Of a DNA stretch of 64,000 nt, positions 30,412 to 38,097 are shown one piece after another. Made by a program: the position numbers and the translations under genes. This DNA comes from Terriglobia bacterium (GTDB taxonomy: Bacteria; Acidobacteriota; Terriglobia; JAJPHL01; JAPKYU01), in contig CBDBKE010000001.1 of NCBI GenBank assembly GCA_965206645.1, forward strand, positions 32,001-96,000, written 5' to 3'. The notes under the pieces are model-generated. The model saw only the letters and a program-made list of their open reading frames with translations, was not told the origin of the DNA and ran no database searches. Numbering within the stretch: the first letter of the stretch is position 1; every line of letters starts with the position of its first letter.

Positions 30412-32163
30412 TTAGTTTTTAGCGTTGTTCTTATCTGCGGCCTGCCGGAGCATCTGCTCGCGCCGGGCTTTGAACTCCGTTCCCGGCTTCCATTCCGGGT
30501 ACTTGTTTCCCTGCGCCAGGCTGTAGCCGACCTGGAAAAAGAGTTGGAGGTCTTCGATGGCGCCTGACAGGTCCCAATCCGGCTTCACTTCATCAGAAAC
30601 CTTGTGATAGTCGCGCTTGGTGTATTCCTTCCGTTTTTGTGCTCCGTACCCCTCCGGCTTGCCGATGAATTCGGTGCCCGAGTCCGGACTCAGGGCTGGC
30701 ACGCCCTGCTTGGCGAACTCGAAGTGATCCGAGCGATAGAAGTACCCCTTCTCCGGTTCTGCATCTGGCTTGACCGTGCGCCCCTGTGTCGCGGCGGCAT
30801 CGCGCAGCAGGTCGTCCAGCGTCGTGTTGCCATAGCCGATGCTGACGATGTCCCGGGTCCGTCCCCACTGGTTCATGCCGTCCATATTGATGTTGGCGAG
30901 CGTCCGGTGGAGCGGGTAGAGCGGGTTATGAGCGTAGAACTTGGTGCCCAGCAGGCCCTGCTCTTCCGCGGTCACCGCAAGAAACAAGATGGAGCGCTTC
31001 GGCGGTACCGCAAGCTTCGTGAACGCCTCAGCGATCTCGAGCAGCCCCGCAGTGCCGGAGGCGTTATCCAGCGCGCCGTTGAAAATCTGGTCGCCCTGCC
31101 GTTTCTCATCCCGCCCCAGGTGGTCCCAGTGCGCGGTGTAAATCACGTACTCGTCTTTGAGTTGCGGGTCGGATCCTTCCAGCTTGGCGATGACGTTGCG
31201 CGACTCAATCTCGCGAAGCCGGTTCTGGACGTGAAAGCTGGCGCGGGCCTTGAGCGGAACGGGCTGAAAGTCCCGGCTCAATGCGGCCTTCTTCAGGGCA
31301 TCAAAGTCCAGACCGCTGGCGGCGAGCAGTCGCTTGGCCTGGCGCAGGTGGATCCAGGCTTCTACGGCGACCCAGTCCAGATTCTTGCCCGGGGTTTTGA
31401 TATCGAAGTTTTCGCCTCCCCAGCTACTGGAGACCACCTCGTAGGGATAGCCGGCAGGACCAGTCTCGTGAATGATGAGGGCGGCGGCCGCGCCTTTCTT
31501 GGACGCAATCTCGTACTTATAGGTCCAGCGCCCGTAGTAGGTCATCGCCCGGCCTTTAAAGATGTTGTCGTCGAGCCGGCCAGGGTCGCGCGGGTCCGGA
31601 ACCGCGGGATCGTTGATCAGGATCAGAAGTGTTTTACCCTTGACGTCCACGCCCTTGTAGTCGTCCCAATCATACTCCGGCGCCACCACTCCGTAGCCGA
31701 CAAAGACGATCTCGGAGTCCTCAACCTTCACCTGCGGCACGAACCGGCGGGTGACCGCGACATAATCATCCGGAAAGCGCAGATTCAGCTTCTTGCCGCC
31801 GACGGCAAACGAAGCCGTGGATTTGGCAGTGAGGCCGACCAGCGGCACCCGCTGCTCGAAGGTGCCATCGGGGTTGCCCGGTTGGAGGCCGAGCTGCTGG
31901 AACTGGTGGGAGAGATAGCTCACCGTCAGCTCTTCCCCCTTGCTGCCCGGCGCGCGCCCTTCGTATTCGTCCGAGGCCATCACACGGATGTGCCGAAGCA
32001 GATCGCCGCTGGTGATCGTCCCCAGGGCGGGTCTGATTTCCGGAGCCACCAGTGAGGCACCGCTGCGCTCCGCGGGTTTCCTGGCGTCGCAGCCTAGGTG
32101 AAGCAGGCCAAGAGCGATTGTCAATCCGCAGACCAAAAGCCGCCTGAGTCTCCTCCGTGTCAT
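30412..32163 (-). CDS. M28-family peptidase with PA domain, lipoprotein
   Basis: Lipobox-like HLGC; [31 protein letters not shown]. Confidence 0.9.
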
Positions 32164-32272: not shown

Positions 32273-34012
32273 CTATCCGTAGACGCGCTCGCCGGGCGCC
32301 CAGCGGGTGATGGTGACCGGCAGATGCTCCACGCGCGCTGAACCGTCCGCATTTCGAAACACCAGCGAGTGCACCAGGTACTTCTCGTTATCCCGAGCCG
32401 GGAAGTCGGTGCGCTGGTGCGCTCCGCGGGATTCCTTCCGGTTCAAAGCGCTCTCGACGATCGCTTCGGCCACGTCCAGCATGAAGCCAAGCTCGAGCGC
32501 AGTCGTCAACTCGGTGTTGAAGGTGCGGCTGCGGTCGTCGAGGTTGATATCCAGAAACCGCTCCTGCAACGTCCGCAGAGTTTGCGCGGCAGCGCTCAGC
32601 TCCGTCCCCGTCCGGTAAATGCCGGCGCTGCTCTCCGTGGTCTGCTGCATCTCCTCCCGGATGGTGGCGATGCGCTCCCGGCCTCCCGTCTTGCGCAGAA
32701 ACTGCTCTTCCAGTCGGCGCTGCTCCTCAGCCGCCTGCGCCAGAACGTGCGCACCGGGCCCGCGCTGCTCGGAGGCGAACACAGCCGCCGCCTGTCCTGC
32801 TCGCGCCCCGAAGACCAGCAGTTCCGGCAGGGAATTGGAACCCAGGCGGTTGGCCCCGTTGATGCTGACACAAGCGACCTCGCCAGCGGCATACAGTCCC
32901 GCCAGCGGCGTTGCGCCGTTCATGTCGGTGTGCACCCCGCCCATCATGTAGTGCACCACGGGGCGCACCGGGATCAGCTCCCGGACCGGGTCAATGTTCT
33001 GGTATTTCTGGCACAGCTCGCGCACGAACGGCAGCTTGGCGTTGATGAGCTTCTCTCCCAGATGCCGCAGGTCTAGGTGGACGACCGGGCCGTAGGGAGT
33101 GTCAATGGTGCGGCCTTTCTGTTGCTCTTTGACGAAGGCCTGCGACAGCCGGTCGCGGGGTCCCAGTTCCATGGAGCGCAGCACCGGCTTGGGCTGCGGC
33201 GTTCCCAGGTTGTAGTCCTGCAGGTAGCGATAACCATCCTTGTTCAGCATGTAGCCGCCCTCGGCGCGGGAGGCTTCGGTGATCAGGATGCCCGTGAAGG
33301 GCAAGCCGGTCGGATGGTACTGAACGAATTCCATGTCCTTCAGCGGAGCACCGGCCCGGTAGGCCAGCGCCATGCCGTCGCCGTTCTTGATGCTGCCGTT
33401 GGTGGTGAACGGATAGACCCGGCCACAGCCTCCCGTGCACAGGATCACGGCCTTGGCGGTGATGGCCTGCACCTGTCCCGTCATCAGCTCCAGTGCGACC
33501 ACCCCCTGCACTCGGCCGTCGTCGACCAGCAGCTTGGTGGCAAACCACTCGTCGTAGCGGATCAGGGTGCTGTATTTCAGGCAGGTCTGAAACAGAGTGT
33601 GCAACATGTGGAAGCCGGTCTTGTCGGCGGCAAACCAGGTGCGCATCTTTTTCATTCCGCCAAACGCCCGCACGGCAATATGCCCGTCCGGGTCCCGGCT
33701 CCAGGGACAGCCCCAGTGCTCCATCCGAAGCAGCTCTTCGGGAGCTTCCTTGATGAAGGCCTCCACGGCATCCTGGTCGCACAGCCAGTCGCCCCCGGAG
33801 ATGGTGTCGTAAGCGTGCTCATCCAGGCTGTCGTTGGGCTTGACGACGGCTGCGGCGCCCCCCTCGGCGGAGACGGTGTGGCTCCGCATGGGGTAAACCT
33901 TGGAGACGACCGCGATGCTGAGTCGGGGATTGACTTCCGCCACGGCAATGGCCGCGCGCAGACCCGCGCCTCCACCCCCAACAATCAGAACGTCGTGAGA
34001 TGAACTTTCCAT
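32273..34012 (-). CDS. frdA: Fumarate reductase flavoprotein subunit
   Basis: [36 protein letters not shown]. Confidence 0.95.
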
Positions 34013-34109: not shown

Positions 34110-34583
34110 CTACACGACGGCCCGCTCCTGCACAGCGTCGCCGACCCGAATTTCACCCTGGGTGAGAATCTGCGCCCGCAGGCCGCCCCGGTGGATCAGG
34201 CCGCGCAGGACTCCGGGCCGGGTGAGCTTTTCTACATGGGAACAGGGTTCGCACAGCCGAATGCCGCGCAGCGTTACTTCGCCGACCTGAAACTCCTGGC
34301 CCGCTAGGTGATTCAGAGGGACCTGGCGGGTGACGATATTGCGGCGGGACTGGCCCGCATCCAGCTCCACTCCTGATTCGTGTTTCAAAGCTTCAATGGT
34401 TTCGATCTCGATCAGCGTCACCTCGCTATCCGGACGGGGCTTGTCGGAGTAGGTCCCAACTCCGTGGAAGTAGCGGTCACCCTCCAGCCCGCGACCGGGC
34501 ACGGCACGCGCCTGGGGAACCGAGCGCATGGACGTGCTGGCCTCTGGGGCGATGTGCAGGGAAACTACCACGCCTTTCCACAT
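34110..34583 (-). CDS. MOSC-domain protein
   Basis: GLEGDRY, RRNIVT, CEPC, RGGLRA; SD AAGGAG before ATG 34583. Confidence 0.88.
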   Translation of the reverse strand: MWKGVVVSLHIAPEASTSMRSVPQARAVPGRGLEGDRYFHGVGTYSDKPRPDSEVTLIEIETIEALKHESGVELDAGQSRRNIVTRQVPLNHLAGQEFQVGEVTLRGIRLCEPCSHVEKLTRPGVLRGLIHRGGLRAQILTQGEIRVGDAVQERAVV

Positions 34584-34762
34584 TTCTGTCAGGCTCCTTT
34601 CCTGGCTTAGGGGCATGGCGGAAGCTGCAGCCTTGGGCGATCCTGCCCTCGGAGGGCGGGTGCCCAATGCTGGCCTCTACTCGCAAACCTGTTGTACCGG
34701 GCTGCAGTGGATCGGCCGCTCCACTGCCAGCGCCGGGTTTGCCCGTACGAGATCACGACTCG

Positions 34763-34813
34763 TTAGCAGCAATCGTCACACGGACACGGTACGGAGCATG
34801 GACACTGGCACAT
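34763..34813 (-). CDS. 16-aa Cys-rich micropeptide MCQCPCSVPCPCDDCC (metallothionein-like)
   Basis: SD AAAGGAGG 6 nt before ATG; 7 of 16 residues are Cys; overlaps the ArsR 3' end. Confidence 0.65.
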   Translation of the reverse strand: MCQCPCSVPCPCDDCC

Positions 34814-35228
34814 GGCTGGCCTCCTTTCCCGGCGTGTTCGCACGCCGTTTTCTAGGTTGAACTCCCACCACGCATTTGCCACTCTGACGCAGCTTCAGCC
34901 GCGCCTCCAGCCGCTTCAGATCGGTCTGGACGTCGTGGCAGCAGCACACCGTCTCCAGGCAACAACGGATCTGCTCAAAGAAGGGATGCTTAGCATCCTT
35001 CAGTCGCACATAGACCCAGCGCCCTTCGCGTCGCTCTTCGACCAAGTCGGCGGTTTTCATCAGCTTCAGGTGGCGACTGACGTTGGGTTGCGAAACCTGG
35101 AGCGCGTCTACCAACTCGCAGACGCACAGCCCCCCTTCTACCGCGGTCAGGCAACAGGTCAGGCGCAGGCGGAGCGGATCGCCGAGGGCCGCGAAGAGCT
35201 CCTGAGGATGGGCCAGATTCACATTCAT
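34776..35228 (-). CDS. ArsR/SmtB-family metalloregulator
   Basis: LFAALGDPLRL, LCVCEL, SQPNVSRHL; additional CC and CCC. Confidence 0.92.
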   Translation of the reverse strand: MNVNLAHPQELFAALGDPLRLRLTCCLTAVEGGLCVCELVDALQVSQPNVSRHLKLMKTADLVEERREGRWVYVRLKDAKHPFFEQIRCCLETVCCCHDVQTDLKRLEARLKLRQSGKCVVGVQPRKRRANTPGKEASHVPVSMLRTVSV

Positions 35229-35248
35229 ATATTCACGTCTTTGAATAT
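35229..35248. promoter_or_regulatory. Probable ArsR autoregulatory operator
   Basis: ATATTCA-cgtctt-TGAATAT palindrome abutting the start codon; TTGACA on the minus strand at 35261-35266. Confidence 0.65.
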
Positions 35249-35532
35249 GTTGCGCCCTTGTGTCAAGCCTTTTCTGCGACGCCTCAACAACCCACCGGGA
35301 GCTAAGCGCGGCACGTGCCGCCCGCCCGCCGGTCGTGGGGGGTGGGTCGTTGGGCGTCGGTCGCTGTGGGGGCGCGGCCGTTCCTGGCCATGCGACCCAC
35401 CGGAAACGTTCGGAAAAGGATTTTCAGCGGCCTGCTGGGATGAGACGGTATGCCACCGTTTGGGGCGGGAACCGCTTGCAAACGGCGATATAATAGAAGT
35501 CGGGGTCCGCGACGGTCCCGCAGAAGGAGGGT

Positions 35533-36027
35533 GTGCCTGTGTCTGGTCGAATCCCGAAAGAGCGTTGGAAAATTGGCGCAGGAATCCTGTTGATTCTGGC
35601 CACGATTACCTGGCTGGCAGTCAGCGGCATTCAGGAAAGCAAGACCTACTATGTCACCGTCCCGGAGCTGCAGGCCATGGGCGATGAGGCATACGGCAAG
35701 CGGCTGCGCGTAGGCGGCGATGTCACCGTCGGTTCCATTCACCGGGACCACGACCGCGTCTCGTTCACCCTGGAGCAAGAGAGCAACACGCTTCCAGTCC
35801 TGTATGTAGGGACCGAGCCACTGCCGGACACCTTCCGCGACCGCGCGCAGGCGCTGGCCGACGGCTCCTACGGGCCCGACGGGGTTTTCGTAGCCAAGCG
35901 GATTCAGGCCAAGTGCGCCTCCAAGTATGAGGCCCAGAAGCCGAGTGCAACGCATGAGGCGCAAGAACCGGGTGAGACCGGCGTTGTGCCGGAGGCCCCA
36001 GCCCAGCAAGGTTCGAGGACGTACTAA
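35533..36027 (+). CDS. ccmE: Cytochrome c maturation heme chaperone, CxxxY type
   Basis: YYVTV, PDTF, AKCASKY. Confidence 0.9.
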   Translation: MPVSGRIPKERWKIGAGILLILATITWLAVSGIQESKTYYVTVPELQAMGDEAYGKRLRVGGDVTVGSIHRDHDRVSFTLEQESNTLPVLYVGTEPLPDTFRDRAQALADGSYGPDGVFVAKRIQAKCASKYEAQKPSATHEAQEPGETGVVPEAPAQQGSRTY

Positions 36028-36030
36028 TCC

Positions 36031-38097
36031 ATGGAGCACATAGGGGCATTCGCCCTAGTTCTGGCGTTCGGGTTGTGTCTGTACGCCCTGGTGGTGGCGC
36101 TGGCCGGGCACTGGTCGCATCGGCCGACGCTGGTGGCCAGCGCGGGGCGCTCCGTCACCGCCCTGTGGGTGTCCTTGACGGTGGCCATCGGCGCACTGGT
36201 GGTGTTGTTTCAGCAGGACAGTTTCCACGTCGCGAACGTGGCCGCGCACAGCAACATCACGATGCCGGCCATCTACAAGCTCAGCGCGCTATGGTCGGGC
36301 CAGGAAGGCTCGCTGCTGTTCTGGAGCTGGCTGCTGGCCTGCTACAGCGTGATTGCAGTCCGGCTGAACCGGCGGCATCTGCCCGAGCTGCAACCCTACG
36401 TCATTGCCACCTTGATGGTGGTGCAAGGCTTCTTCCTGGTGCTGAACTTGTTTGTCGTCCACCCGTTCACCCTGTTGGGGTTCGAGACTTCCGAGGGCTT
36501 CGCTCGGTTCGTCCCCCCTGACGGCAGCGGGATGAACCCACTGCTGCAGTACTGGATGATGGCCATCCACCCGCCGATGCTTTACCTGGGCTACATCGGC
36601 TTCTCGGTGCCCTTCGCCTTCGCCATGGCCGCCCTGATCACCCGCGCTCCCGGCGAGGGTTGGATCCGGGCCACCCGCAACTGGACCATGATCGCCTGGC
36701 TGTTCCAGACGGTTGGCGTCTTGCTCGGCGCACGCTGGGCCTACGCCGTGCTGGGCTGGGGCGGGTACTGGGGGTGGGACCCGGTGGAGAACGCCTCGCT
36801 ACTGCCCTGGCTGACTGGCACCGCCTTCCTGCACTCGGTCATGATGCAGGAAAAGAAAGGAATGATGAAGGTGTGGAACATGGTTCTGGTGTTCACCACT
36901 TTCTTCTTGTGCATCTTCGGCACCTTCTTGACGCGTAGCGGCATTGTCAGCTCGGTCCACACTTTTGCCCTGTCGCCCATCGGCCCCTACTTTGTTGCTT
37001 TCCTGCTGGCCGGCATCGCCTTCTCGGTCGTGCTGATCCTGATCCGGCGGGGACTACGACTCCGCCCATGGCCACATTTCCTGCCGCATGACTACTTGAC
37101 GAGCGAGAATCAGCTCGAATCAGTGGTCTCCCGTGAGTCCAGTTTCCTGTTCAACAACCTGATTTTGCTCGCTGCCTGCTTTGCGGTGCTGTGGGGCACC
37201 CTGTTTCCGGTGATCACCGAATACATTCAGGGTACCAAGATCACCGTGGGCCCGCCGTTTTTCAACAAAGTAAACATCCCCATAGGACTGTTTCTCCTGT
37301 TCCTGACCGGCGTGGGGCCGCTGATCGCCTGGCGGCGCAGTTCCCTCAAGAGCCTGGAGAAGAGCCTGTTTCCACCGGCGTTGTTTGGTGTGGCGTTCGG
37401 GGCTTTGACCTTTTGGCTCGGCGCCCGCGGTTTCTACCCGCTGGTCTCGTTCACCCTGTGTGGCTTTGTGGCCGCCACGGTGATCTCGGAATTCTACCGG
37501 GGGGCGTGGGCCATCCGGCGCAAGACAGCCGTGTCGCTGCCCAGAGCGGCCGTGCATCTCACCCTGCGGAACACGCGCCGCTACGGCGGCTACATCGTCC
37601 ACCTGGGAATCGTGTTCGTCTTCATTGGCTTCACGGGCGCTGCCTTTAACGTCGAGAAGCAGGGCCAGTTGAAGCCCGGCGAGCCGCTGGTGGTCCACAA
37701 TTTCACGCTCGCACTGGAACGCATCGAGATGGGTGAGACCGACAACTATGCTTTCCAGCGAGCTTACGTCCGCACCGAAAAGAACGGTCGGCCCATCGCC
37801 ACCATGATGCCGGAAAAGCGCATGTACAAGACCAGCCAGCAGCCGACCAGTGAGGTGGCTATCCGCTCGCGCATGAGCGAGGACCTGTACGTAGTGCTGG
37901 CCGAGGCCGGCGCCGACGGCGGCGCCTTCCTCCAGGTGTTCCTGAACCCCCTGGTGAACTGGATCTGGCTGGGAGGGTTTGTGATGGCGCTGGGAACCGG
38001 CATTGCCTTGGTGCCCAATCGCCCGCCGCCGCCGGCGCGCGTGGCCCTCAAGGTCACGTCTCAAAGGACCAAACAAAAGGATGAAGTCCTGGCATAA
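36031..38097 (+). CDS. ccmF: Cytochrome c heme lyase subunit
   Basis: WSGQEGSLL, IHPP, WGGYWGWDPVEN, SVH. Confidence 0.95.
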   Translation: MEHIGAFALVLAFGLCLYALVVALAGHWSHRPTLVASAGRSVTALWVSLTVAIGALVVLFQQDSFHVANVAAHSNITMPAIYKLSALWSGQEGSLLFWSWLLACYSVIAVRLNRRHLPELQPYVIATLMVVQGFFLVLNLFVVHPFTLLGFETSEGFARFVPPDGSGMNPLLQYWMMAIHPPMLYLGYIGFSVPFAFAMAALITRAPGEGWIRATRNWTMIAWLFQTVGVLLGARWAYAVLGWGGYWGWDPVENASLLPWLTGTAFLHSVMMQEKKGMMKVWNMVLVFTTFFLCIFGTFLTRSGIVSSVHTFALSPIGPYFVAFLLAGIAFSVVLILIRRGLRLRPWPHFLPHDYLTSENQLESVVSRESSFLFNNLILLAACFAVLWGTLFPVITEYIQGTKITVGPPFFNKVNIPIGLFLLFLTGVGPLIAWRRSSLKSLEKSLFPPALFGVAFGALTFWLGARGFYPLVSFTLCGFVAATVISEFYRGAWAIRRKTAVSLPRAAVHLTLRNTRRYGGYIVHLGIVFVFIGFTGAAFNVEKQGQLKPGEPLVVHNFTLALERIEMGETDNYAFQRAYVRTEKNGRPIATMMPEKRMYKTSQQPTSEVAIRSRMSEDLYVVLAEAGADGGAFLQVFLNPLVNWIWLGGFVMALGTGIALVPNRPPPPARVALKVTSQRTKQKDEVLA

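Follow-up and report, generated by a model that had tools for sequence, protein, structure and literature searches.

Organization of the locus

The locus described here lies in a stretch of 64,000 nucleotides (the window; positions 32,001 to 96,000 of contig CBDBKE010000001.1, forward strand) from the Terriglobia bacterium assembly GCA_965206645.1, and combines an arsR gene, encoding a Cys-rich repressor of the ArsR/SmtB family, with a micro-open reading frame (small open reading frame, sORF) directly behind it. The predicted product of the sORF, MCQCPCSVPCPCDDCC, is a peptide of 16 residues, 7 of which are Cys. A preliminary description, prepared from the letters of this DNA alone, had pointed to such a 16-residue, 7-Cys frame behind a Cys-rich ArsR, led by a Shine-Dalgarno (SD) sequence 6 nt ahead of its ATG, and to a palindrome above arsR; all of these elements are present where it had placed them, and the palindrome is perfect (Table 1).

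On the minus strand, the sORF runs from its ATG at 34811-34813 to a TAA stop at 34763-34765, and the spacer between its SD, AAAGGAGG, and the ATG reads CCAGCC. The TGA stop of arsR (34776-34778) falls within the sORF in another frame, giving an overlap of 38 nt between the two coding regions. Across the related loci, which are cited below by working numbers (L for loci, G for genomes), the conserved unit consists of the putative operator, an arsR without an SD, the SD-driven sORF and a conserved 3' hairpin.

A longer start for the sORF (a 39-aa GTG form in the window and 28- to 35-aa forms in other loci) was considered and rejected, because stops lie in frame 9-20 codons upstream in L004, L005, L035, L037 and L038 and because the SD sits 5-8 nt before the ATG of the short form. 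None of five longer alternative-start versions of the frame was present in a collection of 15 billion proteins, which covers forms of at least 20 aa; this fits the earlier expectation that the peptide would be invisible to gene callers. For the 39-aa frame containing the peptide, a Pfam search up to E 0.01 gave no match, a weak test with so short a query.

Table 1. Features of the arsR-sORF locus and its surroundings, numbered from the first letter of the window
Feature	Position	Strand	Remarks
Micro-ORF, 16 codons plus TAA	34763..34813	-	encodes MCQCPCSVPCPCDDCC
Shine-Dalgarno sequence AAAGGAGG of the micro-ORF	34820..34827	-	6 nt ahead of the ATG
arsR, 150-aa ArsR/SmtB-family repressor of the 10-cysteine clade	34776..35228	-	PF01022, NF033788
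Palindrome ATATTCA-N6-TGAATAT, putative operator	35229..35248		perfect 7+7 inverted repeat abutting the arsR ATG
-35-like hexamer TTGACA of the arsR-sORF promoter	35261..35266	-	read from the sequence
Stem-loop past the micro-ORF, loop GCGGCCGA	34697..34737	-	minimum free energy -26.6 kcal/mol, z -2.2
MOSC-domain gene	34110..34583	-	PF03473, E 2.6e-11; 114 nt past the hairpin
Flavoprotein, 579 aa, succinate dehydrogenase/fumarate reductase type	32273-34012	-	FAD_binding_2 in the L003 orthologue
ccmE/ccmF-like cytochrome c maturation ORFs	35533-38097	+	by eye; divergent from arsR

Conservation and linkage to a Cys-rich ArsR clade

A set of 134 ArsR loci, drawn from relatives, from one genome per species and from metagenomes, was compared. 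The clade that includes the present ArsR was delimited by tblastn, its 34 rows scoring at least 147 bits and all others at most 97 bits; after the merging of identical or near-identical contigs, these rows represent 26 lineages. The clade spans Terriglobia, other Acidobacteriota and Gemmatimonadales, and one database homologue is labelled Tepidiformaceae. An SD-led frame of 8-30 codons, with four or more Cys that make up at least 25% of its residues and a start codon placed from -120 to +400 relative to the ArsR stop, occurs in 27 of the 34 clade rows, equivalent to 22 of the 26 lineages in Acidobacteriota and Gemmatimonadota, as against none of the 98 evaluable loci outside the clade (two more loci had no stop codon). 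In all 22 sORF-bearing loci, a GGAAAGGAGG-like SD stands 5-8 nt ahead of the start. The retention of the SD, the start and the Cys pattern in 22 of 26 lineages from two phyla, compared with 0 of 98 other loci, makes the sORF, as judged from sequence, very probably a real gene. Conservation in relatives, which the preliminary description had named as the decisive check, thus extends across two phyla and is accompanied by substitutions of the coding type.

The sORF was also singular within its own genome. When 4.4 Mb were scanned on both strands for frames of 8-30 aa with at least five Cys and at least 30% Cys, ten Cys-rich sORFs were recovered, and a strong SD was found only at this one. Two other short frames of the same genome (G000), at C1:106889 (minus strand) and C1:186816 (plus strand) and thus beyond the window or at its edge, carry six or seven consecutive Cys codons without an SD and are probably chance frames over TGC/GCA repeats. 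When 401 genomes of the phylum were searched for the CCPGPCC-coding pattern, which covers one peptide subtype and so gives no census, two matches were obtained: the G024 locus, already known, and a match in G394 that was set aside as due to chance, since it lies within a long open frame that has neither an SD nor an ATG and no ArsR. Viral contigs yielded no clade member, the single match being weak (35%).

The relation between the sORF and the end of arsR differs among lineages. ArsR stops before the sORF in L004, L005, L031, L032, L040, L111-L113, L118-L120 and L124, with a gap from the ArsR stop to the sORF ATG that is typically 22-24 nt, and in L115 the two overlap as ATGA. In the loci without overlap ArsR ends at a conserved ...G-x-C-V-x-G followed by a few basic residues, and residues ~123-150 of the present ArsR, a tail of 28 residues, represent a lineage-specific, non-conserved read-on across the SD, in agreement with the early impression that the overlapped tail looked non-conserved. 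ArsR has 130 database homologues at E up to 1e-20, of which 120 are listed; among these best 120 of 130, none of the 115 C-terminal tails that could be delimited contains Cys, and many finish with GKGG, GKEA or RKGGE, the translation of the SD. A frameshifted or fused ArsR tail as the source of the Cys-rich frame is ruled out by the fact that ArsR ends before the sORF in most lineages and that the 115 delimited tails lack Cys.

The peptide family

The 22 sORFs encode 20 distinct peptides of 11-18 residues with the consensus MCPCCPxPCCPDDxCC. Acidobacterial members mostly take the form M-x-P-CC-PGP-CC-P-(D/G)2-3-CC or are of the MCPC type, like that of the window, and Gemmatimonadales members read MC(S)DCP(W/L)C-x3-CC or MNPCCPWC-x4-CC. 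Taken together (287 residues), the 20 peptides consist of 40% Cys, 22% Pro, 13% Gly and 12% Asp, with one Arg, seven Glu, no Lys or His and no aromatic core, and their Cys residues are spaced as CxC and CC. Methionine aminopeptidase removes Met before Cys, Gly, Ser or Ala, and such removal would expose an N-terminal Cys in many members.

The nucleotide changes follow the reading frame. Cys codons alternate (73 TGC and 49 TGT), all four Pro codons occur, and synonymous variation is seen in the codons for Cys, Pro and Gly; no length difference disrupts the frame, and each of TAA, TAG and TGA serves as a stop. Within groups of equal length, pairwise differences are distributed over the three codon positions as 14:24:70, with 58 synonymous and 38 non-synonymous codon differences, counts that are descriptive and not a test, as the pairs are related. 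Compared with the 96%-identical relative L002, the sole change in the 51-nt sORF is TAA to TAG; in the same comparison the intergenic region between the hairpin and the MOSC gene differs by 17.7% and the MOSC gene itself by 10.7%.

The ArsR regulator

The regulator is readily placed in its family, with 47.1 bits to PF01022 (E 2.1e-12, cut-off 22) and 90.8 bits to NF033788 (cut-off 55), and its best relatives in the PDB are the ArsR and SmtB chains 8qkf, 6j0e and 1r1t (E 1e-9 to 1e-11). Its ten Cys residues form CC (25-26), CVC (35-37), CC (89-90), CCC (95-97) and C119, and all ten are invariant across five aligned orthologues, as the GLCVCEL box plus CC, CC, CCC and C. GLCVCEL is the metal(loid) box familiar from ArsR and CadC, and, as the ligand motifs consist only of thiolates, the sensor is predicted to be of the thiolate type. 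Scores against more specific models fall below their cut-offs: 62.5 bits for the E. coli-type ArsR NF007528 (cut-off 97), 51.3 for BigR NF040642 (cut-off 155), 28.7 for CmtR NF047906 (cut-off 150) and 43.6 for Rv2640c NF041413 (cut-off 155). By these scores, the clade belongs to none of the named subfamilies. It can be regarded as an uncharacterized sensor type, of which public data contain at least 130 clusters at the 90% identity level.

A more distant ArsR (43% identity) at L128:855-1193 ends in ...GVCCLGFNTCG, and 4 nt past its stop lies an ORF whose region matched an MIP (aquaporin-type) query. This is a further Cys-tailed variant of ArsR, linked to what may be an arsenite channel.

Predicted promoter and operator, and the transcript

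In 23 of the 26 clade loci, the arsR start has an AT-rich inverted repeat (7+7, one mismatch or none) ending no more than 8 nt away, and ArsR would be expected to exert repression at this palindrome. TTGAC occurs 35-46 nt ahead of the arsR start codon in 21 of the 26 loci, mostly at -37/-38, and no SD-like motif precedes the arsR start in any of them. With TTGAC so placed, transcription would begin on the A of the arsR ATG or beside it, so that arsR would have no leader; it is therefore probably translated from a leaderless mRNA, unlike the SD-led micro-ORF.

Three RNA-library contigs, from two studies, span the junction of arsR and the sORF (X13 record 4, X17 record 5 and X9 record 8). They derive from metatranscriptome libraries and record presence only, with neither strand nor true ends, and stretches without contig cover, including that upstream of 35228, carry no weight as absence. 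X13 record 4 ends at the arsR ATG (counting 11 diverged end letters), and X17 record 5 ends 15 nt inside it. Contig ends that coincide with the ATG fit the promoter geometry and offer a weak hint in its favour.

Immediately upstream of the sORF SD, at window positions 34830-34847, lies a 7-bp GC-rich hairpin, CGGCGTG-loop-CACGCCG, which scored as terminator-like on the plus strand and is kept only in part in L003. It possibly shields the SD region or takes part in its processing, or is there by chance.

The 3' stem-loop

The stem-loop past the sORF has the form CCGG...GGAGTGGA-GCGGCCGA-TCCACTCC...CCGG and is common to 16 acidobacterial loci, in 15 of which the loop GCGGCCGA, containing the palindrome CGGCCG, is identical. 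Besides the window, these include L031, L111-L113, L115, L118-L120, L122, L124, L032, L005 and L040. A related stem-loop with the loop ACGGCCG occurs in three Gemmatimonadales loci. The element stands 30-120 nt past the sORF and is retained where the sORF has been deleted. As a hairpin, it is found once in its own genome. Its core, searched with at most one mismatch in 151 genomes of the class, matched 13 genomes compared with 2 for a reversed control; among those 13, a true hairpin is found in only 3, all of this genus, and the other 11 matches (10 genomes) have no complementary arm as judged by eye.

RNAalifold applied to 16 hairpins supports the structure, with conservation residing mostly in the sequence; a double change is seen in only 4 of 11 pairs, and covariation therefore provides no proof of an RNA function. 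When 34300-35500 was compared with Rfam up to an E of 10, only sub-threshold noise came back, with no match for the stem-loop. No T-run follows it, and the intrinsic-terminator scan placed no minus-strand terminator past the sORF. The stem-loop may act as RNA (as a terminator, in stability or through loop-loop pairing) or as a DNA site; with low confidence, it is taken as the 3' end or a terminator-stabilizer of the unit.

Gene neighbourhood

The preliminary description had also placed a MOSC gene after the sORF. The gene is indeed present downstream; such a position after the module is confined to the three genomes of this genus, L001-L003, and the gene is a lineage-specific neighbour outside the conserved unit. 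In general, downstream genes vary between lineages, and in about 12 of the 19 loci with called neighbours, as read by eye, the gene that follows is convergent; the sORF therefore belongs to the regulator and not to a downstream gene.

Some neighbours are suggestive of metal(loid) handling. A divergent arsR2-arsC(LMWP)(-MIP) cluster adjoins the module in L112 and L124, and such a cluster is also found next to arsR in L122/L123, which have lost the sORF by deletion. In L032, the gene directly past the module resembles arsenite methyltransferases, its 257.6 bits falling narrowly short of the NF008823 cut-off of 263, and a CDF transporter adjoins the module in L113.

In G024 (L041/L005), the module stands beside Mu-like phage genes (terminase large subunit and Gp27) and a Fic gene, and in G003 (L003) an IS1595-family transposase adjoins arsR. 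Such phage and insertion-sequence neighbours, together with the presence of the cassette in two phyla, hint that it moves horizontally. Among the Gemmatimonadales loci, thiC (encoding the radical-SAM protein ThiC) is a conserved divergent neighbour in L034, L035, L038, L039, L042, L125 and L037, and several of these loci also encode, no more than 2 kb away, a second, longer ArsR-like helix-turn-helix protein of 224-241 aa.

Proposed function and alternative explanations

On balance, and by a modest measure of confidence, the sORF appears to encode a metallothionein-like thiol peptide that is derepressed through ArsR and binds the inducing metal(loid). A chelator of this kind is favoured because of the Cys composition of the peptide and its linkage to a sensor gene. 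The arsenic genes that adjoin some lineages, and the partial joint loss of the sORF and of sensor Cys residues described below for L036/L126 and L042, also speak for it. Under this proposal, the locus would form a self-contained sense-and-sequester cassette. The thiol-rich ArsR/SmtB repressor would bind the palindrome covering its own promoter, and a thiophilic metal(loid), with arsenite or antimonite as the leading inducers and Cd, Cu(I) and Hg as further candidates, would fill the Cys sites of ArsR and cause the repressor to leave the DNA. A single transcript, starting at or next to the arsR ATG, would run through the micro-ORF, whose near-consensus SD would drive translation of an 11- to 18-residue peptide made almost entirely of Cys, Pro, Gly and Asp. 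The CxC and CC thiolates of the peptide may then bind the inducer in the manner of a minimal metallothionein, and, as the free ion drops, the repressor would rebind; the conserved stem-loop would close the unit. We infer the leaderless start, the translation of the sORF, metal binding and the identity of the metal from the arrangement described above, and arsenite is the leading, unproven candidate for the ligand of the peptide.

Several observations weigh against this proposal. In L122/L123/L127, the SD and sORF have been cleanly deleted, and the ten-Cys ArsR and the hairpin are kept; the regulator can therefore persist without the peptide. The Gemmatimonadales loci L035, L037 and L038 keep the sORF with an ArsR in which CRC or CGC replaces CCC. 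Arsenic genes adjoin the module in only 4-5 of the 26 lineages, one of which has no sORF, and the neighbours in the window are MOSC, flavoprotein and ccmE/F genes. A strict sigma-70 promoter scan gave no full consensus promoter at arsR, and the -10 element must therefore be weak or non-canonical. DNA carry-over into the metatranscriptome libraries possibly lies behind the RNA contigs. Finally, a 16-residue peptide with 6-7 thiols would hold few ions per molecule, and buffering would need high expression.

Another possibility, which we regard as unlikely, is that the peptide is a partner of ArsR (in metal(loid) relay, as a co-sensor or as an anti-repressor) and not a bulk chelator. A comparable hand-over is performed by ArsD for ArsA, and by metallochaperones for their targets. 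The exclusive tie of the sORF to the Cys-rich ArsR clade (22 of 26 lineages vs 0 of 98 other loci) and the lack of any other effector gene in the unit at most loci are in line with a partner, as is the joint decay seen in L036/L126 and L042, where the sORF has decayed (ATG changed to CTG or missing, Cys lost) and ArsR is without CCC, in L042 also without CVC. L121 has no sORF, and in its ArsR CGC replaces CCC. The loci with a full-Cys ArsR and no sORF, and those with an sORF and a reduced ArsR Cys set, nevertheless speak against such a pairing, and, set beside the decayed loci, L035, L037 and L038 indicate that peptide and sensor Cys residues co-vary only partly.

It is somewhat less likely still that the peptide serves as a sacrificial thiol sink for reactive sulfur, electrophiles or oxidants, with ArsR acting as a redox or persulfide sensor of the BigR/SqrR type. 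Persulfide sensors do exist in the ArsR family, vicinal Cys residues in both proteins could form di- or polysulfides, and a MOSC gene, whose product has a sulfur-carrier-type domain, follows in this genus. The BigR score is sub-threshold and lies far under its cut-off, however; the GLCVCEL box is characteristic of metal(loid) sensing, MOSC is not conserved with the module, and the informative neighbours are arsenic genes or a CDF transporter.

A regulatory role, in which ribosomes stalling at the Cys codons would report the supply of Cys-tRNA and, with the downstream hairpin, tune transcript termination or stability, is improbable. Polycysteine sORFs that attenuate operons have been described (bioRxiv 10.1101/834739), and the conserved stem-loop always lies about 30-120 nt past the sORF, with a same-strand gene beyond it in a few lineages (MOSC here; methyltransferases in L032, L124 and L120). 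Yet the present sORF is the last and not the first frame of its unit and has a strong SD, the downstream gene is frequently convergent, and its Pro, Gly and Asp residues and the terminal CC are conserved as well. Moreover, there is no evident alternative pairing that would act as an anti-terminator, the hairpin is retained after deletion of the sORF, and the called neighbours include no linked cysteine-metabolism genes.

A precursor of a ribosomally synthesized and post-translationally modified peptide (RiPP), such as a chalkophore-like metal binder, is very improbable: several RiPP classes are typified by short precursors rich in Cys, but the whole ORF has 11-18 codons and no leader region, and 78 neighbouring ORFs include no recognizable maturase, only generic methyltransferases in three lineages, with no neighbour conserved. 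Equally remote is an unexpressed ORF whose conservation would stem from the ArsR tail that it overlaps or from an element acting as DNA or RNA; the sORF does overlap the arsR 3' end in this genus and in Gemmatimonadales, but at least 12 lineages without overlap keep frame, SD and ATG with synonymous variation, and the ArsR tails are themselves not conserved.

Comparison with known systems

The nearest parallel to the proposed metallothionein-like cassette is the SmtB-SmtA system of Synechococcus, with the related AzuR-NmtA system of Anabaena (PMC7387436, PMC8790569). In both SmtB-SmtA and the present locus, an ArsR/SmtB repressor on a palindromic operator-promoter is combined with a Cys-rich sequestering product under negative feedback, which is here deduced from the layout of the genes. 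However, smtA is divergent from smtB, whereas the peptide gene is co-directional behind the repressor gene and would be co-transcribed with it. SmtA has about 56 aa, a zinc-finger-like fold and His ligands, in contrast to the 11-18 residues without His found here, and the peptide shows no sequence relationship to SmtA and no Pfam match. The family match and fold that mark SmtA and BmtA (50-60 aa, Cys9His-type cluster) are thus absent; high Cys content in CxC and CC arrangement under a metal sensor is found, the control being read from gene arrangement.

MymT, the Cu(I) metallothionein of Mycobacterium tuberculosis, is likewise a small, initially unannotated Cys-rich bacterial peptide with CxC and is induced by a thiophilic metal (PMC7387436). 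It is three to five times longer than the peptides discussed here. With about 53 aa, MymT is under a CsoR-type rather than an ArsR-type regulator. Fungal copper metallothioneins (Neurospora, Agaricus), of about 25 residues with 7 Cys, CxC spacing and an abundance of Gly and Ser, are to our knowledge the shortest metallothioneins that are gene-encoded. Their Cys count is close to that of the present peptide, but they are eukaryotic, about 1.5-2 times longer and without a linked sensor gene, and the peptide here is, unlike them, rich in Pro and Asp.

Phytochelatins, short poly-thiol peptides made on demand for As(III), Cd and other ions (PMC8041291), belong to the same size class and share the chemistry. 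They are, however, enzymatic gamma-Glu-Cys repeats derived from glutathione, whereas the present peptide would be ribosomal, with an SD, an ATG and a stop, and contains no Glu-Cys repeats.

CCPGPCC, the commonest acidobacterial form (CCPGDCC in L004), resembles the engineered biarsenical tag CCPGCC: both have two vicinal Cys pairs across a Pro-Gly turn, a geometry that laboratory selection arrived at for clamping two As(III) atoms. CCPGPCC has one residue more between the Cys pairs than the tag, and the peptide of the window uses CxC spacing. This similarity points towards As(III) binding but does not test it.

The polycysteine sORFs of mycobacteria, which are leaderless attenuators, share with the present sORF the lack of annotation, very short length, richness in Cys codons and a conserved operon context. 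There, the sORFs come first, leaderless and upstream of cysteine-related operons, and act through their translation; here, by contrast, the sORF is SD-led and last behind a repressor gene, its non-Cys residues are kept and no downstream gene is conserved. It is neither the first ORF upstream of regulated genes, as leader-ORF attenuators are, nor the leader plus core with an adjacent maturase that defines a RiPP. A literature search returned no description of ArsR-linked bacterial Cys micropeptides, most subscription journals and supplements lying outside its reach.

Implications

It is conceivable, though held here with less than even confidence, that several phyla carry unannotated, gene-encoded poly-thiol peptides of phytochelatin size, packaged with their own sensor as a mobile three-part cassette that consists of a leaderless Cys-rich ArsR, an SD-driven 11- to 18-aa peptide and a 3' stem-loop. 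The module is about 650 bp long and self-regulating, looks portable and is a candidate part for biosensing or bioremediation. It also illustrates a blind spot of annotation, in which ORFs under 20-30 codons go uncalled. If the cassette reading is true, the unit would both detect and sequester arsenite or soft metals, and CCPGPCC would be a natural counterpart of the engineered tetracysteine arsenic clamp. The peptide would then be the smallest gene-encoded metallothionein-like molecule of which we are aware; as far as we know, bacterial buffering of such a kind is documented for only a few, much larger proteins. If it is made and binds arsenite or soft metals, it would represent a ribosomal counterpart of phytochelatins in bacteria. 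Should such cassettes moreover occur in several phyla, ribosomal mini-metallothioneins could be a common and overlooked arm of prokaryotic metal(loid) defence.

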